A program made the position numbers and the translations under genes. From NCBI GenBank assembly GCA_943349945.1, contig CALQZS010000002.1, forward strand, positions 51,278 through 115,277: a stretch of 64,000 bases of DNA, in the 5' to 3' direction. This DNA comes from Candidatus Nomurabacteria bacterium (lineage in GTDB: Bacteria; Patescibacteriota; Minisyncoccia; Phycocordibacterales; SBAW01). Below the pieces are notes generated by a model. The model made no database searches and was not told the DNA's origin. It worked only from the letters and a program-made list of their open reading frames with translations. Shown here piece after piece: positions 2,601 through 58,234 of this stretch (position 1 is its first letter; each line of letters opens with the position of its first letter).

Positions 2601-2636
2601 AGGCTATAGACAAAGTCATTGTATACTATATCACGT

Positions 2637-3998
2637 ATGCCCCTGCATCATACCGCAGAAAAAATCACCCACTGGTTGGACAGCTGGAATGTGGAGTCAA
2701 TTCTCGTCTCAAGTGCAGGTTTTTTAATATTGTTTGTGATGGCCGTACTTCTTGACCCAAGCGGAGTGTGGAATTTTTTTGTTGCACTTATAACCCTTAT
2801 GCCGTTTTGGCTGCCAGTGTTTCTTTCTATTGTGTTTTGGGTTATTTGGATGCACTACATCCGCTATCTGTTTTGGTTTAGCCACAACTATATAGTGCTC
2901 GAGGTGCAGCTGCCCCAAGAGGTAGAAAAGTCGCCCAAGGCGATGGAGACGTTTTTAACCGCGCTTTGGAATGCGGGTGGCGAGACTACCTTCCTTGCCC
3001 GCATATGGAAGGGCTCATACCGTCCCGTGTGGGCGCTTGAGATCGCCAGCAACGAAGGCAAGGTTGGGTTTTATATGCACATGCGCGACAGTTGGCGCAG
3101 TGTGGTGGAGGCGCGTTTGTACGGCTTGTTCCCCGACGCTAAAGTGTCCGAGGTAGAGGACTATGCGTCTAAAATAAAATTCAACCTCGACGAATATGAT
3201 TTGTTTGGCGCTGAGTATCAAAAACCTAGCTCAAACCCACACGCTCTGCCCATTAAAACCTACGTAGACTTTGGAATGGACAAAGATCCTAAAGAAGAGT
3301 TTAAAATCGACCCACTCGCCAACCTTATCGAGCTCTTGGCCCAAGTGGGCAAAGACGAGCATTACTGGTTCCAGATTGTGTTCCGTACCCGCAAAAAAGA
3401 CGAGTGGTACGGTTTTTACTTGCCAGGGGATGCATACAAAGACAAAGGCAAGGCAGAAATCCAAGCTATTATGGCCGGCGCCGCAAAGCGCGCCCAAGAT
3501 GTACTCAAGGCATCTGAAGTGGTAGAAGGGAAGGTGAGTTCGCTTTTGACCGATGGAGAAAAAAGGCGCGTGGACGCAATAGAGCGCAGTATGTCCAAAC
3601 TAGTGTTTGAATGCGGCTTCCGTGTGCTGTATTTAGCAAAAAAAGACCGTTTTAACGGCATCAATATACCCCAGTTGATACAGTTTTTTGCGCCGTTTAA
3701 CGGAGAAGGCTACGAACACAACCGGCTACACGTAACCCGTGGTATGGCCTTTTTTGACTACCCTTGGCAAGACTACAAAGACAGACGTAAACAAAAAATA
3801 AAGGAGCAGATTTTCTTTTTTTACAAACATCGGGCATACTTTTATGTGCCGTACGACCAGGAGCCATCTTTTCTGACTGTCGAAGAATTGGCAACGCTGT
3901 GGCACTTCCCAGGGTCGAGCATCAAAACACCAGGGCTTAACCGTGTGGCTGCACGCCGCGCCGAGGCGCCTCCCAATTTACCAACCTTACCTTCTTGA
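2637..3998 (+). CDS. hypothetical membrane protein (N-terminal TM helices plus a large soluble domain)
   Basis: A 454-aa ORF from ATG 2637 (the ORF track starts at TTG 2619). TATACT lies at 2622-2627, 9 nt before the ATG. No confident family assignment was possible. Confidence 0.65.
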   Translation: MPLHHTAEKITHWLDSWNVESILVSSAGFLILFVMAVLLDPSGVWNFFVALITLMPFWLPVFLSIVFWVIWMHYIRYLFWFSHNYIVLEVQLPQEVEKSPKAMETFLTALWNAGGETTFLARIWKGSYRPVWALEIASNEGKVGFYMHMRDSWRSVVEARLYGLFPDAKVSEVEDYASKIKFNLDEYDLFGAEYQKPSSNPHALPIKTYVDFGMDKDPKEEFKIDPLANLIELLAQVGKDEHYWFQIVFRTRKKDEWYGFYLPGDAYKDKGKAEIQAIMAGAAKRAQDVLKASEVVEGKVSSLLTDGEKRRVDAIERSMSKLVFECGFRVLYLAKKDRFNGINIPQLIQFFAPFNGEGYEHNRLHVTRGMAFFDYPWQDYKDRRKQKIKEQIFFFYKHRAYFYVPYDQEPSFLTVEELATLWHFPGSSIKTPGLNRVAARRAEAPPNLPTLPS

Positions 3999-4011
3999 TG
4001 TCTTTTGTTGT

Positions 4012-5022
4012 ATGAAAAAACAAGTAACGCATATCGGCGAAGTGTGTAATGAGTGGTGCCAAGAGTGGCGCATGTATGACCGCGTACTGCCGCTAGGGCT
4101 TTTGGCGGGGGTGCTACTGTTCCTTTTGTACTTTGTAACCATCTCTGCGCCACTGAACTTTCCTGGAGCCACGTACGTTAAGGTACCCAAAGACCAAAGC
4201 TTTGACGAAATCGCCCAAAACCTAGAGGAGCGCAACATCATCCGCTCGCCGCTGGCATTCCGTCTGTTCGCACGGCTCTATGGCCCACAAACACACCTGA
4301 TGAGCGGAGAGTACTTTTTCTCGGAGCCTATAACTGTAGTGGGTGTGGCGCGGCGACTGATGCGCGGCGATTTTGAATTGCTGCCCATTAAAGTAACCTT
4401 GCCCGAAGGCACCACCGCACAGCAAATGGCCGAGCTGTTGGCCAAAAAGATACCCGATTTTGACCACGAAGAGTTTCTTGAAAAAGCAAAACCAAAAGAA
4501 GGGTACTTGTTCCCCGACACCTACTTCTTTTTGCCCGGAGCCGAGGCAGACGAGGTGCTTGAAGTTTTGGAAGAAAACTTTACTCGCCAAATAAACGACC
4601 CGCGCGTACAAGAGGCGCTTGCAAAGTTCGACAAACCGCTGAGCGACGTTATCATCATGGCGTCCTTGCTGGAAAAAGAGGCAGCAAAAACAAAAGACCG
4701 TCAGATGATAGCGGGCATTTTGTGGAAGCGCATAGACATAAACATGCCGCTGCAAGTTGATGCTGTCTTCCCCTACATTATTGGCAAAAATACATTCAAC
4801 ATAACCAGAGCAGAACTGCGCACCGACTCGCCCTACAACACCTACACCAACAAAGGGCTGCCTATAGGACCCATCGCCAACCCTGGACTCGACTCTATTT
4901 TGGCGGCTATGACACCGGTTAAAACAAATTATCTTTTCTACCTATCCGACTTGAATAGCCAATTCCACTTTAGCCCTACGTACAGCGAACACTTGGCCAA
5001 ACAGCGCAAATACCTACCGTAA
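4012..5022 (+). CDS. mltG: endolytic murein transglycosylase MltG (YceG-like)
   Basis: An N-terminal TM segment and YceG motifs (YLFPDTY, LPIGPIANPG). Start was moved to ATG 4012 to avoid overlap with the upstream gene. Confidence 0.85.
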   Translation: MKKQVTHIGEVCNEWCQEWRMYDRVLPLGLLAGVLLFLLYFVTISAPLNFPGATYVKVPKDQSFDEIAQNLEERNIIRSPLAFRLFARLYGPQTHLMSGEYFFSEPITVVGVARRLMRGDFELLPIKVTLPEGTTAQQMAELLAKKIPDFDHEEFLEKAKPKEGYLFPDTYFFLPGAEADEVLEVLEENFTRQINDPRVQEALAKFDKPLSDVIIMASLLEKEAAKTKDRQMIAGILWKRIDINMPLQVDAVFPYIIGKNTFNITRAELRTDSPYNTYTNKGLPIGPIANPGLDSILAAMTPVKTNYLFYLSDLNSQFHFSPTYSEHLAKQRKYLP

Positions 5023-5025
5023 CTT

Positions 5026-5058
5026 AACTAACCCACAAGTCAGACTTGTGGGTTAGTT
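5026..5058 (+). terminator. rho-independent terminator after mltG
   Basis: A 16-bp inverted repeat (aactaacccacaagtc / gacttgtgggttagtt) followed by a T-rich stretch. Confidence 0.6.
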
Positions 5059-5094
5059 CTGTCGTTTATCACAAAAAAGTGATACGCTCCAAAC

Positions 5095-6162
5095 ATGTTT
5101 TGGCAGAAAAAGAAAAAAGGGACAGTGTTTGTAGGCCTCTCGGGTGGGGTAGACTCCGCCGTGTCTGCAGCACTGCTTCAAGCACAAGGCTACAAGGTGG
5201 TTGGCGTGTTTATCCGCATCAGCTTGCCTGGCTACCCCTGCACAGCCGGGGTCGACAAAATAGACGCCATGCGCGCCGCAGCACATCTAGGGATCCCATT
5301 TTTGGAGGTTGATTTGTCGAAGGAGTACGCCGCACAGGTTTTTGATACTACCCGCACCGAATACGCACACGGCAACACACCAAACCCCGACACGTTGTGT
5401 AATAGAGAGATTAAGTTTGGCGCTTTTTATGACTTTGCTAAAGCGCATGGTGCAGATTTTGTGGCAACAGGACACTACGCACAAACCAAAAACGGCAAGC
5501 TGTATGTAAGCGCTGATGATCAAAAAGACCAGAGTTATTTTTTGTGGATGATACCAGCGCACACTCTGCCGCATGTATTGTTTCCTGTAGGCCATTTGCG
5601 CAAACCTCAAGTGCGCGCTCTTGCAAAAAAATTTACACTCCCCAATGCGTCGCGCAAAGACAGCCAAGGTCTATGCTTTTTGGGTGACATCACCATAGAA
5701 GACATGCTCGCCCGCGAGATACAGCTCGTGCCCGGCCATGTACTCGACGAGCAGGGAGCTGTAGTGGGGCGGCACCAAGGTGTCCAACAATACACGCTGG
5801 GGCAGCGACACGGGTTTGTGTTGCACGCACAAACTCCAGACACCCTCCCGCATTTTGTAGTGAGCAAAGACATGGGCAACAACACACTGACAGTTTCCAC
5901 CAGTCCATATCCAAGTGGTGCGCAAACAACAGAGGTGTTGCTTCGCGAGGTGAATTGGTTAGGCGATGTGACCCCCGGACCATGCGAGGCGCGTTTTCGC
6001 TACCGCCAACCACTTCTTCAGGCAGAGCTTGTAGCAACTGGGCCCGAGGCACGGGTGCGCATACACGCGCCGCGACACATACCCTTGGGGCAATCCTTGG
6101 TGCTCTATAGTGGCGACCGGTGTCTCGGTGGCGGCACCGTTGCACAAACCACACTGCAGTAG
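5095..6162 (+). CDS. mnmA: tRNA-specific 2-thiouridylase MnmA
   Basis: A PP-loop (SGGVDSAV), catalytic Cys residues and full-length similarity to the MnmA/TrmU family. Confidence 0.9.
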   Translation: MFWQKKKKGTVFVGLSGGVDSAVSAALLQAQGYKVVGVFIRISLPGYPCTAGVDKIDAMRAAAHLGIPFLEVDLSKEYAAQVFDTTRTEYAHGNTPNPDTLCNREIKFGAFYDFAKAHGADFVATGHYAQTKNGKLYVSADDQKDQSYFLWMIPAHTLPHVLFPVGHLRKPQVRALAKKFTLPNASRKDSQGLCFLGDITIEDMLAREIQLVPGHVLDEQGAVVGRHQGVQQYTLGQRHGFVLHAQTPDTLPHFVVSKDMGNNTLTVSTSPYPSGAQTTEVLLREVNWLGDVTPGPCEARFRYRQPLLQAELVATGPEARVRIHAPRHIPLGQSLVLYSGDRCLGGGTVAQTTLQ

Positions 6163-6210
6163 TGGATAAGTATCGCGCTTTTGTAACAATAAAAAGCGTA
6201 TACTTTCAGT

Positions 6211-6624
6211 ATGGTAAAGCAGCAGGGAACCGCGATACTTATATTTTTTCTGCTTGCATTATTAGTAGGGTGGTGGAGTTTGCCAGAGGAACACACAAAA
6301 CCATATACTGCCGCACCAACACAGCCCAAAGAGACTCTGCCTATTAAACACACAAGCGCCAGCACGACGCACACCTACAGCGGCGAGCTACCTATGGTGC
6401 GTGACTGTGACTCTTTTTCTACAAAAATAGAGACCGCGCATAAAGAATCTTTGCATGCCACTTTGTCGTTTGTGATTACCACCTCTCACGCCTGCGACAC
6501 CAAAACCGCACCAGCGAGCTTTGCGGTTTCGCTGGCAAGTCAGGGCGCTATACCGCCCACTATTGACCACGTACTCTTAAACGGAAATCCAGTAGCGTTT
6601 CGTATTATAGAAGCGCAGCCATAA
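6211..6624 (+). CDS. hypothetical membrane-anchored or secreted protein
   Basis: A 137-aa ORF with an N-terminal hydrophobic segment. TATACT at 6199-6204 lies 6 nt before the ATG. Confidence 0.55.
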   Translation: MVKQQGTAILIFFLLALLVGWWSLPEEHTKPYTAAPTQPKETLPIKHTSASTTHTYSGELPMVRDCDSFSTKIETAHKESLHATLSFVITTSHACDTKTAPASFAVSLASQGAIPPTIDHVLLNGNPVAFRIIEAQP

Positions 6625-6628
6625 ATCT

Positions 6629-7486: not shown

Positions 7487-7525
7487 TCGTCGTACGGGCT
7501 CTTATTTACTTTTAACGACGCGCAT

Positions 7526-8155: not shown

Positions 8156-8158
8156 TAT

Positions 8159-8638: not shown

Positions 8639-8683
8639 CTTCCGCCTACGCGGTTCCTGGCGTACAATAGGTAACACAAACCT

Positions 8684-9803: not shown

Positions 9804-9810
9804 TACACAC

Positions 9811-10482: not shown

Positions 10483-10517
10483 AAAACTAACGTAGTCAGA
10501 CTACGTTAGTTTTTTAC
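10482..10517. terminator. bidirectional rho-independent terminator between ung and pepO
   Basis: A perfect 11-bp inverted repeat (ctaacgtagtc a gactacgttag) flanked by an A-run and a T-run. Confidence 0.75.
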
Positions 10518-10520
10518 TTT

Positions 10521-12473: not shown

Positions 12474-12526
12474 ATATACGGTGGATAATACCCTAAATAC
12501 TCAAATCTTGGTAAGATAGAAACACT

Positions 12527-14495: not shown

Positions 14496-14517
14496 GTAGT
14501 GGGGTATACTGTGGTGT

Positions 14518-15492
14518 ATGAGTTGGCTCTTTGGGGGTGGCAAAAAAACAAGAGGAGAGACCATCGTAGTGCTTGATGTAGAGAACGGCAGCGTAGGCGC
14601 CGGGCTTGTACGGCTTGTACCAGGCGCCTTGCCAAAACTTTTTGCACAAACCCGTGTCCCTATGCCGTTGGCACGCACTCGCAGTGCCGCAAGTTTGGTG
14701 CGCGCAGCGGAAGTTGCCGCGCTTGAGGCGCTCCAACACACCAGCCTTGTCGCCGCGCGCGTGCGACACAGCAAACTGCACACCTTGGGCGATGTATCGC
14801 GAGCCGTTGTTTTTTTGCATGCGCCGTGGTCGACGCTAGCTTCCACAAAACGCTCGTGGAACCACGAACCAGAAATGGTACACGGCTTGCGCGTAGCGTT
14901 GGCTAGTACGTTTGGAGATATCCCTGCCACTTTTCGTCCTTTTTCTACTGCAGCGCTCCACACTACCAACACGCTTTTTGAACAGCAGGGGAGTTTTTTG
15001 CTTTGCACCATAACCGGCGAGATGGCCGAGCTCTTGCTCGTTAAAGACGGCAACTTAGAAGGGCGTGCAACCATTCCCTTGGGTAGCAATTTAGCGTTGC
15101 GGACACTGCAGAGCCACACCGGTATGAGCCAAGCAGAGGCACGCTCGGCACTTTTGTTGGCTCACGATGCACCAACGCTGTATCCCGAGCCATTGAGCGC
15201 CGCCGCAAACCATTTTTCTGCAGCGTTTAGAGACGCTGCGCGCGAGATACTCGATACACCCGTTACAGGCGTGCTTATTATCGGCACCGAACCAGGCGGT
15301 ACGTGGGCGGCCAAAACACTCTCGGTGGCGTCGCCCCCAAGCACCGTACCCGATCCATTTGCCGAAGACACCGTGGTACGCACACTTAATGCCCGCCATA
15401 TAGCACCCTATATTGCCGCGCACGCACACAGCCCAGACATTGCACTTATGGTTGCCACTGTTTTTGTTGCTAGTAAAATTAATGAGGTATAA
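14518..15492 (+). CDS. hypothetical protein (possible actin-like ATPase fold)
   Basis: A 324-aa ORF. The N-terminus (IVVLDVENGSVGAGLV) resembles the phosphate-1 motif of actin-fold ATPases. TATACT at 14505-14510 lies 7 nt before the ATG. Antisense ORFs overlap it. Confidence 0.5.
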   Translation: MSWLFGGGKKTRGETIVVLDVENGSVGAGLVRLVPGALPKLFAQTRVPMPLARTRSAASLVRAAEVAALEALQHTSLVAARVRHSKLHTLGDVSRAVVFLHAPWSTLASTKRSWNHEPEMVHGLRVALASTFGDIPATFRPFSTAALHTTNTLFEQQGSFLLCTITGEMAELLLVKDGNLEGRATIPLGSNLALRTLQSHTGMSQAEARSALLLAHDAPTLYPEPLSAAANHFSAAFRDAAREILDTPVTGVLIIGTEPGGTWAAKTLSVASPPSTVPDPFAEDTVVRTLNARHIAPYIAAHAHSPDIALMVATVFVASKINEV

Positions 15493-15501
15493 TACACATA
15501 T

Positions 15502-17065: not shown

Positions 17066-17179
17066 ATGAAGATAAAAGCCTCAGTAAAAGCTCGCTGTGT
17101 TAGCTGCAAAATGCTCCGCCGGAAAGGGCGGGTGTATGTTATTTGCAGCAATCCTCGCCACAAACAACGCCAAGGATAA
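17066..17179 (+). CDS. rpmJ: ribosomal protein L36
   Basis: A 37-aa ORF ([37 protein letters not shown]) with the zinc ribbon typical of L36. It is not in the ORF track because it is under 60 aa. Confidence 0.85.
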
Positions 17180-20805: not shown

Positions 20806-20849
20806 CAACCGCCGTACTCTACCACCACGCACCATACAAGGAGGGCGCA

Positions 20850-21401
20850 ATGTTCACTATCGCACAAGAAAAGCTGCCTACCGCCCAGTACTTAAAAACC
20901 GAGTTCTTCTTTATTATGAGTAACTACGGTTACTCGTCCCCAACCGCCAAAACCTCCGGCTTGATCGTGGAAGATCCACTTATTCAAGACGGAAAGATTA
21001 TGAAACACCACAAACGGTTCGGGGACTTCCTTCTGGTATTTACTGACCGCTGGTGGAACGGTGGCGGCCAAAGCACATTCCATCTCCAAAACATTGTTGG
21101 ACAACAGATCCTGCTATGGAGTATGACTTACTCAGGCAGCTACAACAAAATCGCCATCCCCACACTAATGGGCGCGTTGCGCACCACATACAATGCGAGA
21201 GAGTTTTGTGGTGGCAGGGGACCAAATATGTACCCATCTGACGACAAAACAATGACCTACTTCAACACCTACGATGGAGATTTCTCGCACTTTTCAGCGA
21301 ACGAGAAAATATTGGGCAAGGTGGGTGAAGAACAACGCTTACTTGGTGGACACTATTGTTGGGGAGGCCTCCATACGCTGACAGTATCACAAAAATATTG
21401 A
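20850..21401 (+). CDS. orphan hypothetical protein in its own transcription unit
   Basis: A 183-aa ORF (alternative start at MSNYGY, 20916) bounded by terminators on both sides. No recognisable family. W/G/Y-rich. Confidence 0.5.
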   Translation: MFTIAQEKLPTAQYLKTEFFFIMSNYGYSSPTAKTSGLIVEDPLIQDGKIMKHHKRFGDFLLVFTDRWWNGGGQSTFHLQNIVGQQILLWSMTYSGSYNKIAIPTLMGALRTTYNAREFCGGRGPNMYPSDDKTMTYFNTYDGDFSHFSANEKILGKVGEEQRLLGGHYCWGGLHTLTVSQKY

Positions 21402-22050: not shown

Positions 22051-22078
22051 TTGACAGCAACAAAAAATTGTCTATACT
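22051..22078 (+). promoter_or_regulatory. sigma-70-like promoter for grpE-dnaK (TTGACA-N16-TATACT)
   Basis: Consensus -35 and near-consensus -10 elements. The -10 lies 9 nt before the grpE ATG, so the leader is very short or absent. Confidence 0.55.
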
Positions 22079-24656: not shown

Positions 24657-24725
24657 TCGATTGACCGCACTGTGCGATTCTGGCAACACAATACCACAAA
24701 ATCATGCGTGATATAGTTACACCTT

Positions 24726-27899: not shown

Positions 27900-28006
27900 C
27901 GTAGAGCCTCCATACACCTAACTTAATTGTATCACAAAACACTGGGTAAGTCAAATGTGTCTATGGGTAAAGCGGCTGGAGGATTTATCTGCTATATTGA
28001 GCGAAT

Positions 28007-30643: not shown

Positions 30644-30686
30644 AGCCACTATTCTTACTGAACAAACCTAGATATACTAAACATAT

Positions 30687-31370: not shown

Positions 31371-31474
31371 AAAGATTCAAAGCTATATGTTAATAGTGCT
31401 CAGTATACTACAACGTACACAAAAAATATCGAGTGTTTTTTGGTGATATGGTATAAAGGTAGCATACTGAGATC

Positions 31475-31671: not shown

Positions 31672-32350
31672 TAGGGGTGGCGAGGGTAGTAGGATTTCCA
31701 CCTACAACTCCGGGTCCCGAACCTGGCGTTTTGTTTTAAACTACACCCCCAAAAGAAGCTTGCTTTACCTGAAGATCGCTTCGATCATGGTTTGGAGTTT
31801 TTCGGCTAGACTCTTAAGTTTTCTTTTTAAACTTACGGGGACTACCCGCATCACCGAGTGGCTGGATACAGTCGCTGAAGCATCGTTCGCAAAGACGCTG
31901 TGCGTCTGTTTTATGATATATTCTCGTGATAAACGGGTTACTACCCCCAGAGAACAACCCATTGATGGTGTTCAGATCGGTCAGTGCTGCAATAGCTGCA
32001 GATGCCGAACGGTACAGGGATGGTGTTTTCGCAGTACTTCTCGACACCTGCAAAGGCAGTGGATTCGGTACCCCAAAGACATGCGCGAGCGGAGTCGGCT
32101 CACCTTTGGTGCAAAATCCGTCGAGACACAGAATGATCCTGCCGGATTCATCCCTCACACACAGCCGCAATCCTCTAGACTCAGTCCCGCGTGGTTCTGT
32201 CCAACAGGGCAGTATCTGCAACACCCATCGCTTTACCGTAGACCCCGCAGCAACGTGGAAATGGGTGGTTACTCCTTCACGAGGAGAGACGCGCGGCATG
32301 TTCATAACGAACCCCTTTCTTGTTCAACTAAAATCACAATACATACTAAA
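31672..32350 (-). other. GC-rich apparently non-coding island, candidate structured RNA of about 0.7 kb (identity unresolved)
   Basis: Long ORFs appear in five of six frames but with non-protein-like composition. GC3 is not elevated and rare codons are present. A minus-strand promoter-like TTGACT...TATGTA lies near 32350-32380 and a minus-strand terminator at 31642-31671. Confidence 0.4.
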
Positions 32351-32402
32351 TATATTTTAGTCAACTCTAAAAACTTGAGCTGAATAAAGCTATACTGCGC
32401 AC

Positions 32403-38294: not shown

Positions 38295-38327
38295 CAGCAA
38301 GGGCGCTTTTTTGATACAGTACAGCAT

Positions 38328-42364: not shown

Positions 42365-42420
42365 CAAAGGGTTTTCTACTAAAAGAGAATTTTCTTTTGG
42401 TGTGGTATACTGCCGGAGTA

Positions 42421-43930: not shown

Positions 43931-44593
43931 CTATTCTTTTTTTCTTGGGTCTTTTTGTTCTACCAAAAGTAGAATCTTTCTCTCAATTGGGGCAGTTGGG
44001 CGGAGTGTGCGCAGTATATTTTTTGGCGCTGCAGGGGAGTGTGGCGCCTCGTCTATATCGTCGGCGAACCACTCCATATTTTCTTCCACGGTGAGCCACT
44101 GCTCCAGTTTGTATTGGCGCATATTAAAAGGCTCCGAGTATGCCAACATGGTCTTGCGACCGTCGCTCATAGTGTATTCGTGGAAGTATGACATCGCTAG
44201 CTCGCGTGGGCTTGCGTATACGCCGTCGCGCCAGCGCAGCATGGCGTGGTTGGTTTTGCTTATAGCGCCCCACAAACCATTATCCTCGAATATTGCAACC
44301 ACATGGTCCTCGTCGTACTCGCGGGTTTGAAAGTCCATAAGGTATGGCGGGCGACCGTGGTACGCCAAGGCAGCCGCAGCCAACAGCGCCGCCTCTATGC
44401 AGTGTGCCCGGCCCGTGCGCATAACCCTGCGCGGCGACATCAGCGTCTCGCCATCTACTTCAAAATTTACTTTGAGCGTATCTAGATAGTCTTGAATCTT
44501 TTTTGGGGTAGAGAGTTTTTGTAATATTTTTTTCTCGGCGGGGGACAGGAGGGCCTGCATCTGTGCCCGGTATTTCTTTGGGTCCATGGACAC
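43931..44593 (-). CDS. hypothetical protein, possible transglutaminase-like/papain-fold domain
   Basis: GRAHCIEAALLAAAALAYHG (Cys at a helix N-terminus) and HVVAIFEDNGLWGAI (His...GW) resemble the transglutaminase-like core. The assignment is weak. Confidence 0.55.
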   Translation of the reverse strand: MSMDPKKYRAQMQALLSPAEKKILQKLSTPKKIQDYLDTLKVNFEVDGETLMSPRRVMRTGRAHCIEAALLAAAALAYHGRPPYLMDFQTREYDEDHVVAIFEDNGLWGAISKTNHAMLRWRDGVYASPRELAMSYFHEYTMSDGRKTMLAYSEPFNMRQYKLEQWLTVEENMEWFADDIDEAPHSPAAPKNILRTLRPTAPIERKILLLVEQKDPRKKE

Positions 44594-45019
44594 ATCTTAT
44601 CATTTTTACTGAACAGACTCCCCTGCCAAAATCCAAAAAAACCGGGGGAGGGGTTTGAGGGAATGAGTTTGATACAAAAGTACACAAACAATTTACTAGA
44701 TTTTTATTTTAAAAAGTTGCGGGCGAGTAGAGGGGAGGGGAAGTTAAAAAATTTAATTACTAATCTAGAGCTAGGGTATAGGCCACGCTTTGAATGTATA
44801 TACGTCGCACAATATACCTTTTGCGACGTATTCCAGGCACAAAAGGCTTCTTCCTATAAAGCCTCTGGCTCGCGCATACATACGCCCCGACCTTTCCCTC
44901 GTCCTAGATCTTTCCAAACACTCCTGGGGCATTCTAGGGGCATACTTTCCTACACCAACTGCCAACCTTTCTCTAAATCACCCCTCTTCCCCAAGGGTCA
45001 AAATTTTCGCTTTTAAGCA

Positions 45020-45044
45020 GGGGAGTCGCTCCCCCATTTTTATA
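45020..45044 (+). terminator. rho-independent terminator inside a long intergenic region
   Basis: ggggag tcg ctcccc hairpin followed by CATTTTTATAT. Confidence 0.65.
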
Positions 45045-45119
45045 TAAAAAGAACCGATTGATATTAGATCAGTCGATGTCTACATCTAGCGTCGAACGTA
45101 GCACAGGAGCAGCTAAAAG

Positions 45120-45524
45120 ATGCGCTACAATGGGAAGCATATGAATCGATTGATAAAAAACTACGCACCACTATTTGGCAGGATATTACTAGGCGGGTTC
45201 TTTTTGTGGAATGGGGTACAAACCCTGCTCCACCTCCCCGCCACCGCCGAGATGCTTACCACGGCAGGGCTGCCTAGCTCGGTCTTTTTGGCAACGCTCG
45301 TTGGCGCCATAGAAGTACTCGGTGGCATTGGGCTGGTAGTGGGCTTCCACACGCGCCTGTGCGCCGCAGTGCTGGCATTCTACATTGCACTGGTAGCTGG
45401 GTTTTTGTTTAACGCAAACGATGCCGCCGGCACGCACTTGTTTTTGCAGCGGATGGCTATTGTGGGCGGTTTATTGTACGTGGTGGCGTACGGCTCGGGC
45501 AGATGGAGCACCGACCACACCTAA
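45120..45524 (+). CDS. DoxX family membrane protein
   Basis: DoxX motif (FGRILLGGFFLWNGVQTL...) with four TM helices. Confidence 0.75.
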   Translation: MRYNGKHMNRLIKNYAPLFGRILLGGFFLWNGVQTLLHLPATAEMLTTAGLPSSVFLATLVGAIEVLGGIGLVVGFHTRLCAAVLAFYIALVAGFLFNANDAAGTHLFLQRMAIVGGLLYVVAYGSGRWSTDHT

Positions 45525-48016: not shown

Positions 48017-48121
48017 ACCAGAAGTGTACTCAAAATACTGTATTTAATCTATTTGACAGAAATTTTAAAAAATGATGAAATAGAGCGCAGTTGCATCTTG
48101 TGGATCGGGAGGAACAAACAA

Positions 48122-48475
48122 ATGCTGAACGCACACTCTCTCGCCGCACAACTCGAAGCGGCATACCAGCAGCACAACCAGACAATCCGCACAGACACTC
48201 TGACATTATCAGAAGGCACGCGCAAAGCACTTTTCCGAAACATTGCTGAAAAGATGGAAGGGGTAGAAACCTGGAATGCGGCACAAATTGCGGTCTTAGT
48301 GCACAACATCATGCACTACCCGGACATACGCACCACCGCAAGTTCGGGCGAGTATGCCGCGTTTATTGCCTGGATGAAACCCTTCTTGGAAGTTTTGTGC
48401 GGCGACACCGCACTCGCCGCGTCTACCTTGGCGCAATTTAACCGACTACAGGGCGAAGACACACGCCATCTGTAG
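48122..48475 (+). CDS. hypothetical protein (117 aa)
   Basis: ORF from ATG 48122 with GGGAGG 8 nt upstream. The ORF-track N-terminal extension overlaps rplI and was rejected. Confidence 0.5.
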   Translation: MLNAHSLAAQLEAAYQQHNQTIRTDTLTLSEGTRKALFRNIAEKMEGVETWNAAQIAVLVHNIMHYPDIRTTASSGEYAAFIAWMKPFLEVLCGDTALAASTLAQFNRLQGEDTRHL

Positions 48476-48486
48476 AGCGAGTCAAC

Positions 48487-48520
48487 AAACGTCGACCTTT
48501 TGGTCGACGTTTACTTTTTA
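48487..48520. terminator. bidirectional terminator between convergent genes
   Basis: aaacgtcgacc tttt ggtcgacgttt hairpin flanked by A and T runs. Confidence 0.8.
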
Positions 48521-48523
48521 TGT

Positions 48524-49741
48524 TTATCGTCCCAGCAAGTACTTCACCGCTGCATCAGTTTGCGGGTCTTTGCCTGCCTCCACATCTTTTGCTGTGCGTT
48601 CTACTTGGATATCTGCAACGAGTCCGCCATCAGATATAGACATGCCGTTTGGGGTTAGCCAGCGCGCGATGGTGATTTTAAGCTCGGCACCACCACCCAA
48701 CTCTACCAGCTGCTGTACAGAGCCTTTGCCGAAGGTGCGGGTACCCACGGTCTTAGCTACACCATGTTGTGCCAAAGCACCTGCCAAAATCTCTGATGCC
48801 GAAGCGGAGCCTTGGTTAATAAGTACTGCCATTTTGAAGCCTTTTTTATTTGCAAACACGTTATAGCCCAAACTGCGGTGTATAGTATTTTGTTGTTTAC
48901 CTTTAAAGTCTTCGGTCACCACAATATCCCCCACCGGCAGGAAGTAGCTGGCCATAGACACCGAAGCCTCTAGGTAGCCACCTGGATTACCACGCAAATC
49001 AAGTAAGAGTTTACTGCTCCCCGAAAGCACAAACTCGCGCAATGCATTGCGGAAGAGGTTGCTTGAGTTTTGAGAGAAGCTGTACAATTCGATAACGAAG
49101 ATACCGTCGTCGCGCTTGTACGACTTGAGCACCGGGATGCTAATTGTGTCGCGCACCACCGACACCACCCGAGGCTCTGATTCGCCCGGGCGCAAAAAGG
49201 TTAGTTCAATGGGCGTGCCCTTGGGTCCACGAATTAGCTTAATTGCCTCGTTGCTGTCTATAGATATAGCGCTCGTAGTACCTATGCGCGCAATAATGTC
49301 GCCGCTGCGGATACCTGCGCGCTCTGCCGGAGAGTCTTTGAGTGGTGCCACGACCACCAAGTCACCGTCGGCGTTGTTGTCTATCTCCATACCAACGCCC
49401 CCAAACGAGCCGCTTATGTCTTCTTGGAAAACTTGTGCATCCGAGGGCGGCAAAAAGACCGTGTACGGGTCACCAAAACTTCGCGCAAGGCCGGAGATGG
49501 CGCCGTATATCTGCTCTTGGGTCGTAGGGAGCGTACTGGACGAGTTGGACATCACAAATTTGGTGTTGAGCACTTGGTACGCCTCCCAAAACTGTTGCAT
49601 GTCTATGTCGGCAGGGTTTGCAAAAGAGGTGCTTGTTGCTGCAAAACTTTGTCGCTCCGAGACACCGGCGTATACACCGCCGCCAAAGGCTATGAGCAAA
49701 CTAAGCACCACCGCAACAGCACTACCCTGTGTTTTAGTCAT
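48524..49741 (-). CDS. ctpA: carboxyl-terminal processing protease (S41, CtpA/Prc-like) with PDZ domain
   Basis: S41 catalytic Ser/Lys region and PDZ domain. Start is placed at MTKTQGSAVAVVL (ATG 49741; alternative 49750). The upstream ORF-track extension was rejected. Confidence 0.88.
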   Translation of the reverse strand: MTKTQGSAVAVVLSLLIAFGGGVYAGVSERQSFAATSTSFANPADIDMQQFWEAYQVLNTKFVMSNSSSTLPTTQEQIYGAISGLARSFGDPYTVFLPPSDAQVFQEDISGSFGGVGMEIDNNADGDLVVVAPLKDSPAERAGIRSGDIIARIGTTSAISIDSNEAIKLIRGPKGTPIELTFLRPGESEPRVVSVVRDTISIPVLKSYKRDDGIFVIELYSFSQNSSNLFRNALREFVLSGSSKLLLDLRGNPGGYLEASVSMASYFLPVGDIVVTEDFKGKQQNTIHRSLGYNVFANKKGFKMAVLINQGSASASEILAGALAQHGVAKTVGTRTFGKGSVQQLVELGGGAELKITIARWLTPNGMSISDGGLVADIQVERTAKDVEAGKDPQTDAAVKYLLGR

Positions 49742-49748
49742 ACCGACC

Positions 49749-49768
49749 ATTATACCACATGGTATACT
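49749..49768. promoter_or_regulatory. back-to-back divergent extended -10 promoters (minus TGgTATAAT for ctpA; plus TGgTATACT for corA)
   Basis: Each -10 hexamer lies exactly 7 nt before the ATG of its gene (49741 on the minus strand, 49776 on the plus strand), implying leaderless mRNAs. Confidence 0.55.
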
Positions 49769-49775
49769 CGAGAGT

Positions 49776-50687
49776 ATGTTGACACGGTATGCGCGCAAAG
49801 ACGTAACCTGGGTAGACTGTGTCTCCCCTTCCTCCGCAGAAGTACGCTCGCTCATACAGGAGTTTGGTATCGACCCTCTCATTGCCGAAGAACTACTGCT
49901 ACCCTCCTATAAGTCCAAGGTCGAACAGCGCAGCGACCACCTCTATGTCATACTCCACTTCCCTGTGTTGCATGGCGCACACCGCCACCCCGAACAAGAA
50001 ATAGACTTTCTTATCGGCAAAAATTTTTTGATCACCACCCGGTACGAAAACGTGGACCCGCTACACTCGTTTGCAAAAGCGTTCGAGGTTGAAGAAGTGC
50101 TTGGCCGCGACAGCACCACAACCCACGGCGGACACTTGTTTGTGTCGATGACACAAAATCTCTACCAAGCACTGCTCAACGAGTGCGACACACTGCGCAA
50201 GCGGCTATGGAATATCGAAGAGCATATTTTCCGCGGCGATGAACGCCGCATGGTTGCCCAACTTTCCCAAGTAGGGCGCAACATACATGACTTCCGTCAG
50301 TCGCTTGCACCGCACAATGAAATGCTGCTGTCTTTTGACCCTGCCGGCACACGCATGTTTGGTCCAGAGTTTTCCTACCATGTGCGTAGCTTGACCAACG
50401 CCTATAACCGGGTCGAGCGGGTGCTCACTGGCCTACACGACTCGTTGGGTGAGCTACGCGAGACCAACAACTCACTCCTCTCGACCAAGCAAAATGAAAT
50501 AATGAAAACGCTTACTATTATGGCGTTTGTCACCTTCCCACTTACCCTTATCTCGAGTGTATTTGGTATGAACACCTCCTACCTTCCTATCGTAGGACTG
50601 TCGGGTGACTTTTGGATGGTGATTGGTATGATGATGGTACTTGCCGCAAGCTTTTTTGTATATTTTAGACACAAAGGCTGGCTATAA
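49776..50687 (+). CDS. corA: magnesium/cobalt transporter CorA
   Basis: C-terminal two-TM region with a GMN motif (FGMNTSYLP). The N-terminal 220 aa of the ORF-track entry are antisense to ctpA and were rejected. Confidence 0.85.
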   Translation: MLTRYARKDVTWVDCVSPSSAEVRSLIQEFGIDPLIAEELLLPSYKSKVEQRSDHLYVILHFPVLHGAHRHPEQEIDFLIGKNFLITTRYENVDPLHSFAKAFEVEEVLGRDSTTTHGGHLFVSMTQNLYQALLNECDTLRKRLWNIEEHIFRGDERRMVAQLSQVGRNIHDFRQSLAPHNEMLLSFDPAGTRMFGPEFSYHVRSLTNAYNRVERVLTGLHDSLGELRETNNSLLSTKQNEIMKTLTIMAFVTFPLTLISSVFGMNTSYLPIVGLSGDFWMVIGMMMVLAASFFVYFRHKGWL

Positions 50688-50725
50688 ACCCCATGTTTTC
50701 ATTTTTGCGACGACCAAAACCGGCC

Positions 50726-52153: not shown

Positions 52154-52226
52154 TTTTTGTCCACCAGTTGTTCGACCAGTTGTCCATATTTCCCCACTGG
52201 CTAAATAGAGGTACTCTTGAGAGACA

Positions 52227-53606: not shown

Positions 53607-53622
53607 TACGCATATCTAGATC

Positions 53623-54240: not shown

Positions 54241-54278
54241 AAACCAGGCCCTTTCTATCCCCATCTGTACCGCCAAAG

Positions 54279-54350
54279 TTATCCCCACCTGAGCTCCCGA
54301 AGGTCAGTCCTTCGCGAAGGACTGACCTTCGTAAGGAAAACTGTGGATAA
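54279..54350. repeat. 72-bp palindromic module, copy 1: TTATCCCCA - N10 - 34-bp perfect palindrome - N10 - TGTGGATAA
   Basis: DnaA-box-like 9-mers in inverted orientation (the second is a perfect DnaA box complement) flank the palindrome cgaaggtcagtccttcg/cgaaggactgaccttcg at 54298-54331. Confidence 0.7.
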
Positions 54351-54427
54351 GTCTTGCTGGTTTTGGCGCTATTTGCTACCCTAGCAAAAGTGACCAATTG
54401 TGGTCGATACAAAACAGGAGGGGGACA

Positions 54428-54730
54428 ATGTCCAAACCAATACAGTTCATTACAGTCAAACAACAAAGAACGATAGATTCTGACGCGCTTGCGCAGATTG
54501 TCGCAGACGCACGAAAACAAGACGCAAGCCTGTGCATCGCCGCCGCAGAATTACAGCGGAGGTACATGGCAGGTAAGGCCCTGCTTGGCCTAAGTCAAGA
54601 TCAGCAGATTGTCTTTTTTGGTTGCATCCATGAGGTTGGTAAGAAACCAACACTCACCACAACCTGGACTGCGCAAGATTTCATGGGACAGACTGTCCTG
54701 CAACAAGCAAACCTTTGGCTCCAAAGCTAG
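54428..54730 (+). CDS. hypothetical protein (100 aa)
   Basis: ORF from ATG 54428 with AGGAGGGGG immediately upstream. One of the few clear Shine-Dalgarno-like sites in the window. Confidence 0.5.
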   Translation: MSKPIQFITVKQQRTIDSDALAQIVADARKQDASLCIAAAELQRRYMAGKALLGLSQDQQIVFFGCIHEVGKKPTLTTTWTAQDFMGQTVLQQANLWLQS

Positions 54731-54742
54731 GGGCCGCCATAT

Positions 54743-54777
54743 AAAAAACCATCCGTACGGATGGTTTTCTTTTTTCT
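54743..54777. terminator. strong bidirectional rho-independent terminator
   Basis: aaaaccatccg tac cggatggtttt hairpin followed by CTTTTTTC. Confidence 0.9.
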
Positions 54778-54801
54778 TATCTAAACCCCTCGGGTTGTAG
54801 A

Positions 54802-55149
54802 TTAGGAGAGTTTAGTTATCTTAACCTCAAAGTAAGGTTGGCGATGTCCGCGCTTTTTAAAGTAGTTGCTCTTTGCTTTGTATTTGATAACCACCACCTT
54901 TTTGGCTTTGGCGATTTTTTGGATTTCTGCCGAGACTTTTGCCCCAGGGATAGTTGGTGTGCCGATGGTGGTGTTAGAACCATCGTCTACCAAAAGCACA
55001 TCAGTAAACACAAAAGAGTCGCCCACCTGGTGGTCGCCAGGCATCTTCTCGATTTTGAGTGTATCCCCTTCCGAGACAATATATTGCTTGCCGCCGGTCT
55101 GGATTACCGCAAACTCCTTTATTTCTGCTGTTTTTTCTGCTGTGGCCAT
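54802..55149 (-). CDS. rplU: ribosomal protein L21
   Basis: FAVIQTGGKQYIVSEGDTLKIEKM matches the L21 N-terminus. Confidence 0.9.
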   Translation of the reverse strand: MATAEKTAEIKEFAVIQTGGKQYIVSEGDTLKIEKMPGDHQVGDSFVFTDVLLVDDGSNTTIGTPTIPGAKVSAEIQKIAKAKKVVVIKYKAKSNYFKKRGHRQPYFEVKITKLS

Positions 55150-55212
55150 GCCAGAGTAATATACCTTACCCCAGAGCGGGGCGCAAGAGCCTTTGGTAGT
55201 CTGCTAAAACCC

Positions 55213-56313
55213 CTATTCCTTACCCTCTAAAATAGGCTTATCTAGCAGCCCTATGTCTATATTTATGTCTGTTGAGGCGTCTATTTTGAGCACGTCCTTT
55301 TCTATCTTGCCCAGCTCCTTGGTGCCCGCGTTATAGTGGTTAACCGTGGTCGAAAGCGATGCTCCGAGCTTTTTGTAATAGTCTTGGTAGGCGTTTATAT
55401 GCCGCCCTAGCGCCTCGACATTCTTAGCAATATCTTTTGCCTGCTCTTCTATCTTAAATGCTTTAAATCCATACAGCACCGACTGCAGGTAGGCAGCAAA
55501 GGTTGTGGGCGACACAATAATAACCTTGCGGTCGTTTTGCGCATAGTCCAGCAAGCTGCGCGTGTTGACCGCCCCCACCCCGTCGTTAAGCAGGTCGTAG
55601 TAAATACTCTCGGCAGGTATGTACATAAACGCAAAAGAAAGCGTGCCATCCTTGGGCCGCACATATTTACTGGTCTCGTCGATGCGCTTTTTGAGGTCGC
55701 GCTTGAATGCTTCTTCAAACTCTACCCGGCGAATGTCGTCTTTTTCGTCATGCAGACGGGTGTAGTTTTCTAGTGGAAATTTTGCGTCCACAGGGATAAT
55801 CCCCTCTTTGGTGCGAATTATTGCGTCCACCGTTTCGCCGCCAGGAAACTCGTACTGCATAGCGTAGGCGCCAGGCGGCAGGATGTTGCTCATCACCAGC
55901 TCTAGCGATGCCTCGCCCAAGTTACCGCGCTGCTTTTGGTTTTTGAGCACCTTTTCCAAATTCGATAACTGTTCGGCAATCACAAACACCTGCTTGGTAG
56001 ACTCCTGAGTTTGGGTCACCCCCTTAACCACCTCGATAAGCTGCTCGCTCACCTGTTTGGTAATAGTGGCCATCAGCGCGCGCGCTTGGTCGGACTGCTG
56101 GCTGATTTGGTTTGACTGCGACGACATAAACTCAGACATGTTCTTTGTCCCTTCTCCCAGTTTTGTATCCATGGCACGAGTGAGCTCGGCAAGTTGGTTT
56201 TGTAGCAACATCAACCCCTGCGTGTCCGCAGGCGCATCTGTTTTTGGACGCAGAAAAAAGTACGCAACCAGCCCCAAGTTAGCAACCAAAAGCACCACGA
56301 TAAGCCATTCCAT
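55213..56313 (-). CDS. rmuC: DNA recombination protein RmuC
   Basis: N-terminal TM, coiled coil and a RmuC nuclease-like C-terminal domain (VDAKFPLENY...). Confidence 0.8.
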   Translation of the reverse strand: MEWLIVVLLVANLGLVAYFFLRPKTDAPADTQGLMLLQNQLAELTRAMDTKLGEGTKNMSEFMSSQSNQISQQSDQARALMATITKQVSEQLIEVVKGVTQTQESTKQVFVIAEQLSNLEKVLKNQKQRGNLGEASLELVMSNILPPGAYAMQYEFPGGETVDAIIRTKEGIIPVDAKFPLENYTRLHDEKDDIRRVEFEEAFKRDLKKRIDETSKYVRPKDGTLSFAFMYIPAESIYYDLLNDGVGAVNTRSLLDYAQNDRKVIIVSPTTFAAYLQSVLYGFKAFKIEEQAKDIAKNVEALGRHINAYQDYYKKLGASLSTTVNHYNAGTKELGKIEKDVLKIDASTDINIDIGLLDKPILEGKE

Positions 56314-56342
56314 ACCCCTATTCTACATGATAGAATGCCAGA

Positions 56343-56795
56343 ATGACACAAAATGACCTGCGAGAATCGATGAAGGACGCTATGCGTGCCAAAGATACAG
56401 TGCGCTTGTCTGTTATACGCGGCATTTTAACCATGGTCACCAACGACCTCGTAGCTAAAGGCAATAAACCGACCGACACACTACCCGAAGACGACATCAT
56501 GGCGCTCGTGCGCCGCGCCGCAAAACAGCGCAAAGACTCTATAGAGCAGTTCGAAAAAGGTGGCCGCGCTGACTTGGCCGAAACAGAAAAAGCCGAACTT
56601 GTGATACTTGAGAGCATGCTCCCCGCGCAGATGCCTGAGGACGCGGTGCGCGCAGCGGCAGTGGCCAAAGCAGCAGAGCTGGGTATCACCGACAAAACAA
56701 AAGCAAATCAACTCATGGGCGCCTTGATGAAAGACCTTAAAGGCAAAGCGGATGGCTCGGTAGTAAAAGCCGTGGTAGAGAGTTTGTTTGCGTAG
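56343..56795 (+). CDS. yqeY: GatB/YqeY domain protein
   Basis: YqeY-like motif (LRESMKDAMRAKDTVRLSVIRGI...). Confidence 0.8.
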   Translation: MTQNDLRESMKDAMRAKDTVRLSVIRGILTMVTNDLVAKGNKPTDTLPEDDIMALVRRAAKQRKDSIEQFEKGGRADLAETEKAELVILESMLPAQMPEDAVRAAAVAKAAELGITDKTKANQLMGALMKDLKGKADGSVVKAVVESLFA

Positions 56796-56799
56796 TGTC

Positions 56800-58080
56800 C
56801 TACTCCAACCTGTTTGAAACCTCTAAGTGAGATTCTTTTTTGGGGAACATCTCCCTCCAGATTTGTTTAAATTTATCTAGACGCGTGGGCATTGGCGCCG
56901 CCAGCGGGTGCGGGTCGAGGTTGGGCATCACCTCCATTTGCGGTGGCGCCTCTTGGTAGTCCCACAGCGCTTGCAGTGCCGCAACCACCTCTTGCGGACT
57001 TGCCATGACCATTTGGGTCATATACAAGCTCGAGTTAACCCGGAATATCTCGCGTTGCGAACTTTCGTTGGTGCGCATAATAGCTGCAGACAAGGTGGCA
57101 GGCGACGCGTCGGGCACCACAAGACCATTGACCCCGTCTTTAATAAGCGCGTGCGTTATCTTGGTATCCACCGCGATAATGGGTGTGTGTGCCGCCGCAG
57201 CGCGGATAAAAGCATCTTCGTTTTCTTCGCCGCCAGAAAGATATAAAAAGATGTTGGCGGTTTTAAGACACGACACCAACGCCTGCGCATCTTCAAAATG
57301 TACCCACGAGCGGAGTCCACGGATCCACGCACGCAGACGCCACCACCATTTACTCCCACCCAACGCGACCACAATCAGCCCAGCTTTTTGATAGGACGGA
57401 TTTGCCCGCAGCAGCGCCAACGTACCCAAAGCGGCAGAGAGCTTTTTTTTGCTCCCCAATGTCGTAGCAACTAATAATGAAAAATTTATCTCTGGGTATT
57501 TTTGTTTAACATCAAATAGTAGTGGTTCTTTGTCTGCACTTTCAGTATCGTATAAACGCGGGAATACAATTATTTTATCTTCATGATGTGCCGCGGTTAC
57601 AGACAAGTACAGTCGGGTTATATCCGAAAAAATACAGATACGGTGTGCAAGCGGCAACACCAGGGACAGTGGCATGGCCCCAAAAAAACTCAGTGGTTGG
57701 CGAAATGCGCGGGCACCCCACTCGTAGGTGCGGATGTTAACCACCCACACCTTGTCGTACCAAAACGCGAGCCACGCCCCTGCCCACCCGCTGGCACGCA
57801 CATCGTCGGAGTACACCACGTGCGCGCGGAACTCCTTTTGCCACGACACCTGAAAGCGCGCCGTGCGCATCATGGACAGTGCTTTAAATCCGAAAAATGA
57901 ATTGGTGGGATATATCCATGCGTGGTCGTTGAGCTTTTTTGTTTGGAAGCCGCTTCCGCGCCTAGTCCACACCACCACATGCAGCACATCTGCGGCACTA
58001 ACCAAGCCGTCGAGAAATTTCTGCTCTTTGCCGCCTTCTTTTAAAAACTCGGTGTTGGTGGTCAAAAACAACACGTGCAT
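56800..58080 (-). CDS. glycosyltransferase family 1 (GT4-like)
   Basis: C-terminal GT1 motif (PIIAVDTKITHALIKDGVNGLVVP). Start is at MHVLFLTTN (ATG 58080), with TATACT 6 nt upstream on the minus strand (58087-58092). The R/K-rich ORF-track extension was rejected. Confidence 0.8.
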   Translation of the reverse strand: MHVLFLTTNTEFLKEGGKEQKFLDGLVSAADVLHVVVWTRRGSGFQTKKLNDHAWIYPTNSFFGFKALSMMRTARFQVSWQKEFRAHVVYSDDVRASGWAGAWLAFWYDKVWVVNIRTYEWGARAFRQPLSFFGAMPLSLVLPLAHRICIFSDITRLYLSVTAAHHEDKIIVFPRLYDTESADKEPLLFDVKQKYPEINFSLLVATTLGSKKKLSAALGTLALLRANPSYQKAGLIVVALGGSKWWWRLRAWIRGLRSWVHFEDAQALVSCLKTANIFLYLSGGEENEDAFIRAAAAHTPIIAVDTKITHALIKDGVNGLVVPDASPATLSAAIMRTNESSQREIFRVNSSLYMTQMVMASPQEVVAALQALWDYQEAPPQMEVMPNLDPHPLAAPMPTRLDKFKQIWREMFPKKESHLEVSNRLE

Positions 58081-58234
58081 AGCTGTAGTATACCCCCAAA
58101 ACTGGCGGCGGGTCTTTTGCCCTCTCTTCCCTTTTCTGCTATGCTGTGTTCGTGCTGGTTTTGGCCCTAGGCGCTTCGCGCGTAGGACCTCGCTCGCTCG
58201 CATAAGAGAACAAGCTCTCTTTGCTCACTCGCTC

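Follow-up and report, generated by a model that had tools for sequence, protein, structure and literature searches.

The window studied here is a stretch of 64,000 nucleotides (nt) from a Candidatus Nomurabacteria bacterium (contig CALQZS010000002.1 of assembly GCA_943349945.1, positions 51,278 to 115,277), with a G+C content of about 0.51. We have mapped onto it 72 genes taken from independent pipeline gene calls, which come from three overlapping loci. Two tRNAs are the only RNA genes found in it. The genes are closely packed: 20 of the 50 same-strand pairs are at most 10 nt apart, and 8 overlap. Our subject is a short sequence, TANNNT, often in the form TATACT, which is found just before the start codon of many of these genes and has the appearance of the −10 box of a bacterial promoter. 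An original prediction, made from the sequence alone, stated that such boxes lie 6–9 nt upstream of ATG at many genes, that Shine-Dalgarno (SD) motifs are nearly absent, and that leaderless or near-leaderless mRNAs are pervasive.

We call spacer the number of nt between the 3' end of the hexamer and the start codon. A TANNNT box is found at a spacer of 6–9 before 28 of the 72 starts, when about 3 would be expected from the 1635 other ATGs of the window, which are used as background. There are no matches at all at spacers 5 and 10, and background values are found beyond them. A second set of open reading frames (ORFs), built independently of the start choices of the pipeline as a control for start bias, reproduces the 6–9 peak. 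For comparison, the same script and measures were applied to 70 annotated genes of Escherichia coli: Only two of them have TANNNT at this spacer, and no peak is seen.

The total number of TATACT hexamers in the window is unremarkable, 30 copies on both strands for an expectation of about 31. Nine of these copies lie 6–9 nt before a called start, when 0.07 would be expected (Poisson P = 7.5e-17), and a tenth precedes ATG 14518, a start which the pipeline passed over. When k-mers are counted without any predefined motif in the −20 to −1 regions of all window starts, TATACT ranks first (10 copies, 0.25 expected, P = 2e-13), and no SD-like word is found among the top k-mers. In the related genomes described below it is the third most common hexamer, after TATAAT and TAAAAT. 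The recurrence of TATACT upstream of starts, as originally noted, is borne out in the window, but "striking" is too strong a word for it: TATACT is the form of a common −10 hexamer which this genome favors.

In order to see whether the arrangement is conserved, we have used 80 loci obtained in a scan with the DnaB protein of the window, one genome per species, all of them from bins of Patescibacteria (or candidate phyla radiation, CPR). The nearest ones are labelled Ca. Paceibacterota (83% DnaB identity) and Ca. Adlerbacteria (81%), and the others Nomura-, Taylor- and Zambryskibacteria, Parcubacteria and similar names. The window itself belongs to the bin of an ultra-small bacterium of the Parcubacteria/Paceibacteria, within the CPR. 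These relatives contribute 1288 ORFs in 1.3 Mb, with a G+C content from 0.28 to 0.59 and DnaB identities from 61 to 83%. Among these ORFs, the extended box TGnTANNNT occurs 140 times at spacer 6, 61 times at 7, 31 times at 8 and 39 times at 9, as compared with about 10 at other spacers. The plain TANNNT hexamer shows the same peak. Among divergent genes, 61% have a box at 6–9 nt, as compared with about 22% at control spacers; among same-strand genes whose neighbor lies more than 15 nt away, 46% have one. Taken together, the control spacers, 16–19 and 22–25 within these intergenic stretches, yield about 20%. For operon-internal genes, the value is about 25%, with 10% in the control.

The box arrangement is retained at orthologous genes, although the surrounding DNA has diverged. 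The clearest example is dnaB, where TANNNT is kept 6–9 nt before the N-terminal ATG in 76 of 79 orthologues, 60 of them with the TGn extension. The spacers are 6 (41 cases), 7 (20), 8 (6) and 9 (11), with only 2–3 cases for each other spacer. The first eight residues of DnaB, MAKGEHKG, are among the peptide stretches which were chosen as search patterns for related loci. The box is also kept in 23 of 25 orthologues of rmuC, 43 of 57 of rplU and 26 of 36 of corA. For recR, which lies inside the operon after dnaB, it is found in only 20 of 77. Since the most frequent spacer is 6, the seventh base after the hexamer falls on the A of ATG. This seventh base is the commonest start position of bacterial RNA polymerase.

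A distance of 6–9 nt is also the usual one for a ribosome-binding site (RBS), so explicit tests are needed to tell a promoter from an RBS. We have considered a gene as first in its transcription unit when it is divergent or when a distance of over 25 nt separates it from the gene upstream. In the window, a box is found before 24 of 46 such genes, but of the 24 genes inside operons only 2 have one (Fisher P = 2.5e-4). The TGn extension is present in 11 of 26 window sites, for an expectation of about 1.6 (binomial P = 6e-7). When 614 sites of the relatives are aligned on the hexamer, T at −5 (0.54), T at −3 (0.57) and G at −2 (0.53) form the TRTGn of an extended −10 element, and TTG at −23 to −21 (0.49, 0.49, 0.28) would correspond to a −35 element with the canonical spacer of 17 bp. 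Neither signal is found in 231 control sites with TANNNT 16–19 nt from ATG (T 0.36, G 0.18). The hexamer has three invariant positions, T1, A2 and T6, and its middle positions are free. These three bases are the ones read by region 2 of sigma-70; a site of base pairing would give contiguous complementarity instead. Finally, TGnTATACT or TGnTATAAT is also found 17–33 nt upstream of a few starts, in one case, in a contig flank, followed by a proper AGGAGG. In the window, the box which lies 17 nt from ATG 1153 indicates that the motif is not bound to a fixed ribosome-binding distance. From these tests taken together, we identify the motif as an extended −10 promoter of the sigma-70 type.

The gene which follows this distant box, ORF 1153–2208 (+ strand, 351 amino acids), was considered as a candidate for the housekeeping sigma factor and rejected, as it only has sigma-70 region 4 (Sigma70_r4 at residues 24–77, Pfam E = 3e-13). 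A further match, at residues 232–288, is weak and of the HARE-HTH or RNA-polymerase-delta-like kind, and no PDB match is found at E <= 1e-20. The window contains no complete sigma gene. Neither of its two tRNAs has a clear box just upstream, and the tRNAs located in the relatives are too few to provide a separate set of promoters.

An SD core of at least 4 nt at a sensible distance precedes 8 of the 72 window genes, as compared with 6.4% of background ATGs. Duplexes formed with the anti-SD sequence ACCUCCUUU have an average energy of −2.4 kcal/mol for the genes and −2.6 for the background. In the E. coli control, 49 of 70 genes (70%) have an SD core, and the mean energy is −6.3 kcal/mol. In the relatives, 229 tightly coupled internal starts include 14 with an SD core, and a control window 30 nt further upstream gives 13. 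An unbiased count of GGAGG in the relatives shows only a tiny peak at spacer 5 (21 for about 5–11). The scarcity of SD motifs is thus confirmed, and the sequences suggest that SD is essentially unused both in the window and at the internal starts of the relatives.

A few genes of the window are exceptions. GGAGG is found near called starts four times, for an expectation of 0.3. The few genes which it precedes, 20850–21401, 48122–48475, 54428–54730 and perhaps 45120–45524, are small and have no Pfam match above threshold. For the proteins starting at 48122, 54428 and 45120, the three which were searched, the 80 related loci contain no homologue. We have not accepted the enrichment as a demonstration of a functional anti-SD: One of the cases sits within a longer ORF that is coupled, the others are small ORFs lacking homologues in the relatives, and the gene finder favors SD. 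These small ORFs may be recent acquisitions which brought their own SD. Two of them, 54428 and 48122, had already been listed as having an SD; 20850, with a perfect AGGAGG, must be added to the list. The apparent SD before GTG 60489, inside a longer ORF whose ATG lies 2 nt past the upstream stop, is probably not an SD at all. No rRNA gene was found in the window with Rfam, at gathering or E-value thresholds, and none is seen in its two 10-kb contig flanks. A fuzzy search for conserved 16S and 23S motifs gave nothing in 86 loci, and a 16S gene is likewise missing from all 90 loci retrieved.

The −15 to −1 regions of internal starts are rich in A+T (66%, with 38% A, as compared with 49% and 26% for the window). 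Considering the short distances between genes, internal cistrons are most likely translated through termination-reinitiation coupling, as we infer from their arrangement.

The individual sites are given in Table 1. All eight TATACT boxes of the original prediction are at their coordinates 6–9 nt before ATG, and all its variants, with hexamers at 5083, 12512, 15488, 27993, 38315, 49754–49749 (−) and 31463, are present. Every site which it listed is right, although the list omitted TATACT at 30673 (ATG 30687) and 58626 (ATG 58640) and about ten other TANNNT boxes.

Table 1. Boxes before start codons in the window, with exceptions. The distance is counted in nt from the 3' end of the element to the start codon.
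Element	Position	Strand	Distance	Start codon	Gene or product	Remarks
−10 box TATACT	2622..2627	+	9	ATG 2637	DUF8128 protein	Divergent gene
Extended −10 TGaTACGCT	5080..5088	+	6	ATG 5095	mnmA	
−10 box TATACT	6199..6204	+	6	ATG 6211		
Extended −10 TGgTAAGAT	12509..12517	+	9	ATG 12527	alaS	
−10 box TATACT	14505..14510	+	7	ATG 14518		Pipeline start is GTG 14569, behind SD-like AGGAG
−10 box TATAAT	15488..15493	+	8	ATG 15502		Pipeline start is ATG 15604
−10 box TATACT	22073..22078	+	9	ATG 22088	grpE	TTGACA 16 bp upstream
Extended −10 TGaTATAGT	24709..24717	+	8	ATG 24726	ABC transporter	
Extended −10 TGcTATATT	27990..27998	+	8	ATG 28007	trpS	
−10 box TATACT	30673..30678	+	8	ATG 30687		Newly added
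CATACT, non-canonical box	31463..31468	+	6	ATG 31475	Uncalled 53-aa ORF	Hydrophobic N-terminus
−10 box TATACT	32391..32396	+	6	ATG 32403	pepA	
Extended −10 TGaTACAGT	38312..38320	+	7	ATG 38328	murG	
Extended −10 TGgTATACT	42403..42411	+	9	ATG 42421	ABC ATPase	Pipeline runs differ: 42400 or 42421
Extended −10 TGaTAAGAT	44594..44602	−	6	ATG 44587		
−10 box TACACT	48023..48028	−	6	ATG 48016	rplI (ribosomal protein L9)	
Extended −10 TGgTATAAT	49749..49757	−	7	ATG 49741	ctpA	
Extended −10 TGgTATACT	49760..49768	+	7	ATG 49776	corA	
−10 box TACTCT	52212..52217	+	9	ATG 52227	dnaB	
−10 box TATATT	55158..55163	−	8	ATG 55149	rplU (ribosomal protein L21)	
−10 box TAGAAT	56320..56325	−	6	ATG 56313	rmuC	
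−10 box TATACT	58087..58092	−	6	ATG 58080	Glycosyltransferase	Other pipeline run: ATG 58203
Extended −10 TGgTATACT	58623..58631	+	8	ATG 58640	PspC-domain protein	Newly added
Extended −10 TGcTACACT	58857..58865	+	7	ATG 58873		
Leadered exception, TGaTATACT	1127..1135	+	17	ATG 1153		Predicted leader of about 11 nt, no SD
SD exception, canonical AGGAGG	20836..20841	+	5-nt spacer, GGAGG to ATG	ATG 20850	183-aa protein	Sub-threshold Pfam match to DUF5680
SD exception, GGGAGGAA	48105..48112	+		ATG 48122	117-aa protein	No homologue in 80 related loci
SD exception, AGGAGGGGG	54413..54421	+		ATG 54428	100-aa protein	No homologue in 80 related loci

Some of these boxes share very short intergenic regions. 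The genes ctpA (−) and corA (+), at 49741–49776, are divergent and only 34 bp apart. Their extended −10 boxes stand back to back with 8 bp between, and the −35 region of each promoter overlaps the start codon of the other gene. From this geometry, simultaneous polymerase binding to both promoters is probably not possible. Comparable tight divergent gaps are found at 2600/2637 (36 bp) and 47251/47276 (24 bp). Such arrangements bear on genome compaction: Divergent genes can share as little as 34–36 bp, and the upstream half of a promoter then lies inside the coding sequence of its neighbor, as in ctpA and corA.

We believe that these data are very probably explained by pervasive leaderless mRNAs, or mRNAs with leaders of 1–3 nt, transcribed from extended −10 promoters which abut the ATG. 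In about half of the transcription units of this organism and its clade, transcription would be driven by a housekeeping, sigma-70-type extended −10 promoter, (TR)TGnTAnnnT, whose −35 element is weak or missing. RNA polymerase normally starts 7 (6–9) nt past the hexamer, so that transcripts would begin on the A of ATG, or 1–3 nt before it for spacers of 8–9 nt. The 5'-terminal AUG would then be recognized directly, without SD pairing. In other bacteria, a leaderless 5'-AUG is decoded through 70S or IF2-dependent binding. Downstream cistrons, whose starts are at most about 10 nt away from the stop codon before them, or overlap with it, in A/T-rich surroundings, would be reached by termination-reinitiation. 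The leaderless interpretation originally put forward is therefore supported by operon position, promoter anatomy, spacing, conservation at orthologues and background levels of SD, and the transcription start itself is deduced from the sequence.

Several observations weigh against this interpretation. Both the box and an SD are missing from about 45% of the genes which head a unit, which means that a second, uncharacterized initiation route must exist. A good −35 element is found in the window only at grpE, and the −35 signal is weak in the relatives. The spacer is 9 nt in 8 of the 28 window sites, and a start exactly on the A would be unusual there: A leader of 1–3 nt, or the chance occurrence of some weak boxes (e.g., TAATTT at 17177 and 18662), seems more likely for these sites. 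Taking spacers of 8–9 nt together, a leader of 1–3 nt and no leader at all appear equally probable. The transcript 5' ends are taken from rules established in other bacteria, and the mode of ribosome recruitment and the coupling of internal genes are proposals. Lastly, an upstream motif learned by the pipeline might in principle distort its start calls, and our own ORF sets and the control spacers were used to control for this.

One alternative accepts the promoters as real and places the true starts further downstream, in which case the mRNAs would be leadered and the leaderless pattern would be an annotation artifact. In fact, the pipeline chose 14569 and 15604, both behind SD-like sequences, and calls differ between near-identical strains. 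Nevertheless, if the adjacent ATG were irrelevant there would be no reason for the box to keep its distance from it, and spacing is confined to 6–9 nt, with the neighboring values empty. The N-terminal ATG which follows the box in nearly all dnaB orthologues is in frame, and the MAKGEHKG stretch was itself one of the search patterns. In roughly one window site out of two, no other start codon of the ORF comes before the ATG adjacent to the box. We consider this alternative very unlikely.

Even less probable, in our opinion, is that TAnnnT is a non-SD ribosome-binding or translation-enhancer element in leadered mRNAs, of the type described as group B by GeneMarkS-2 and found in Bacteroidetes. 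The spacing is also canonical for an RBS, some other signal might be expected where SD is absent, and A+T-rich upstream regions are known translation enhancers. On the other hand, the published criterion for group B is a motif before both first and internal genes (PMC6028130), and here the motif is nearly absent before internal genes, with 2 of 24 in the window and about 25% in the relatives, for a control of 10%. The combination of T1, A2 and T6 with TG and with TTG 17 bp upstream is a sigma-70 signature and not a base-pairing footprint, and the same box is found 17–33 nt upstream of some starts.

As for chance, or a by-product of the A+T-rich intergenic DNA beside starts, intergenic DNA does contain more A+T than coding DNA, so that TANNNT is more frequent in it, and the few weak matches such as TAATTT or TAAAGT are probably accidental, but the explanation is refuted by the positional statistics: the Poisson probability for TATACT, the empty spacers 5 and 10, the control spacers (about 20% vs 46–61%) and the absence of a peak in E. 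coli.

The preferred reading, leaderless mRNAs from promoters abutting the ATG, has consequences for annotation. Start calls on the same or near-identical DNA differ by 5–41 codons: 467 or 426 amino acids for a glycosyltransferase, 455 or 486 for CysS, 359 or 336 for YceG and 250 or 243 for an ABC ATPase. In the window, calls disagree at 14518/14569, 15502/15604, 42400/42421, 58080/58203 and 60489/60546, and they also disagree between the loci L087/L088 and L089/L090. The pipeline tends to prefer internal GTG or ATG codons behind chance SD-like strings over an ATG which is adjacent to a box or coupled to a stop. One such choice, GTG 14569, is probably mis-called. Gene finders which favor SD would misplace starts in these bins, or place them inconsistently, and a box-N6-9-ATG rule would be a simple correction of N-termini across a very large uncultured clade. 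In the same way, expression constructs for Patescibacteria could place the ATG 6–7 nt past a TGnTATAAT or TGnTATACT box, instead of adding an RBS.

A few other elements of the window should be mentioned. The tRNA at 31681–31750 (−) has an Rfam score of 47 bits and was missed by ARAGORN; its D-arm region is unusual (GTAGTTTAAAACAAAAC). Downstream of tRNA-Glu (58235–58306), two long hairpins are found in tandem at 58386–58500 (+). They have a common outer stem, GGGTCGCGAG ... ACTTGTGACC, and their inner stems differ in a mutually compensating way, ATTTTCC/GGAAAAT in one and GAGTTTGCT/AGCAAATTC in the other. The minimum free energy is −63 kcal/mol over the 140 nt folded (58381–58520), and 58386–58500 has no Rfam match. 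The same element lies near tRNA-Glu in a related locus (L013, 20648–20754, −), and also at about 15047–15087 (−) of locus L012. Its structure points to a structured repeat or a small RNA. A short hairpin at 44796–44831 (TACGTCGCA-N13-TGCGACGTA, with a perfect 9-bp stem) lies in a 532-bp gap without genes (44588–45119). It is 94–97% identical over 29–36 nt in two related loci (L009, 706–741, and L008, 2915–2943), in relatives whose proteins are about 80% identical. Outside this hairpin, the gap shows neither conservation nor any Rfam match.

When our results are compared with known systems, the promoter itself appears to be an ordinary one. Like other extended −10 promoters read by sigma-70 or sigmaA, it has TG one base upstream of the hexamer and T two bases further upstream; its −35 signal is weak. 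The TRTG sequence, or "−16 region", is typical of Bacillus-type, Gram-positive sigmaA promoters. What sets it apart is only where it stands relative to the start codon.

This placement is well known elsewhere. In bacteria, leaderless transcription is recognized by a Pribnow box 6–8 nt before the starts of first genes in operons; this is group C of GeneMarkS-2, reported for 90% of Actinobacteria and 97% of Deinococcus-Thermus genomes (PMC6028130). Examples are Mycobacterium tuberculosis, Streptomyces and Deinococcus deserti, with 25–60% of leaderless transcripts; leaderless transcription is predicted for about 40% of M. tuberculosis operons and was found for 167 of 262 mapped D. deserti genes (PMC6028130). 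The window shares with group C the TANNNT box 6–8 nt before first-in-operon starts and its absence before internal genes. There are also differences. In group C, the remaining and internal genes carry SD-type sites, whereas here SD is at background level, even at the 229 internal starts of the relatives. The promoters are of the extended −10 (TRTGn) type. Moreover, group C genomes which use genetic code 11 almost all have a high G+C content (10.1101/2022.07.25.500264), unlike the present clade, with 28–59%. The organism thus appears to follow a known mode of working, with the deviation that internal cistrons also lack SD. A full-text literature search, which is not proof that nothing has been published, found no paper linking leaderless mRNAs to CPR, Patescibacteria, Parcubacteria or Saccharibacteria, nor any paper reporting transcription start sites for Parcubacteria. 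A preprint on the TM7x transcriptome does not include an analysis of start sites or untranslated regions. YchF, which is reported to modulate the translation of leaderless mRNAs in E. coli, is retained in CPR (PMC12641178). A gene for a YchF-type GTPase is found in a contig flank about 5 kb to the left of the window (4655–5770 of flank L087), with TGcTATAGT 9 nt before its ATG.

Bacteroidetes and the related FCB genomes (group B) resemble the present clade in that SD is essentially unused and the sequence before starts is A/T-rich. They differ in that a single short-distance motif precedes first genes and internal genes alike, with leadered mRNAs, while here the motif is found at operon heads only and has the anatomy of a promoter. 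In haloarchaea (group D, for example Haloferax volcanii and Halobacterium salinarum), most first cistrons are leaderless, and operon genes are tightly packed or overlapping, as in our case. At the distal cistrons of haloarchaea, SD is of little importance. Their promoter, with its TATA box some 26 nt upstream, and their initiation machinery are archaeal; here, the element is a bacterial −10 box about 10 nt upstream. As far as function is concerned, the combination found here resembles that of haloarchaea more closely than that of Actinobacteria, with a bacterial promoter.

On the side of the ribosome, loss of the anti-SD motif and of bS21 has been reported for a subgroup of Parcubacteria: Of the 16S genes of Parcubacteria, only 48% were found to contain the CCTCCT motif, and bS21 is frequently missing (Tsurumaki et al. 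2022, RNA 28:1041; PMC9297842). This work deals with the same lineage, and the loss which it describes in the ribosome matches the absence of SD which we find in the mRNA; mRNA 5' regions and leaderless transcription were outside its scope. Our results would provide an explanation, from the mRNA side, of how translation is initiated by Parcubacteria with such reduced ribosomes. A broader proposal, about which we are evenly divided, is that the whole Paceibacteria/Parcubacteria clade is essentially free of SD, with at least half of its operons leaderless from extended −10 promoters and internal cistrons reached by termination-reinitiation only. This would be the mRNA counterpart, and probably the enabling condition, of the loss of the anti-SD and bS21. 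If so, this would be a bacterial lineage with an initiation logic similar to that of a haloarchaeon, unlike Actinobacteria and Deinococcus, which keep SD for their leadered genes.

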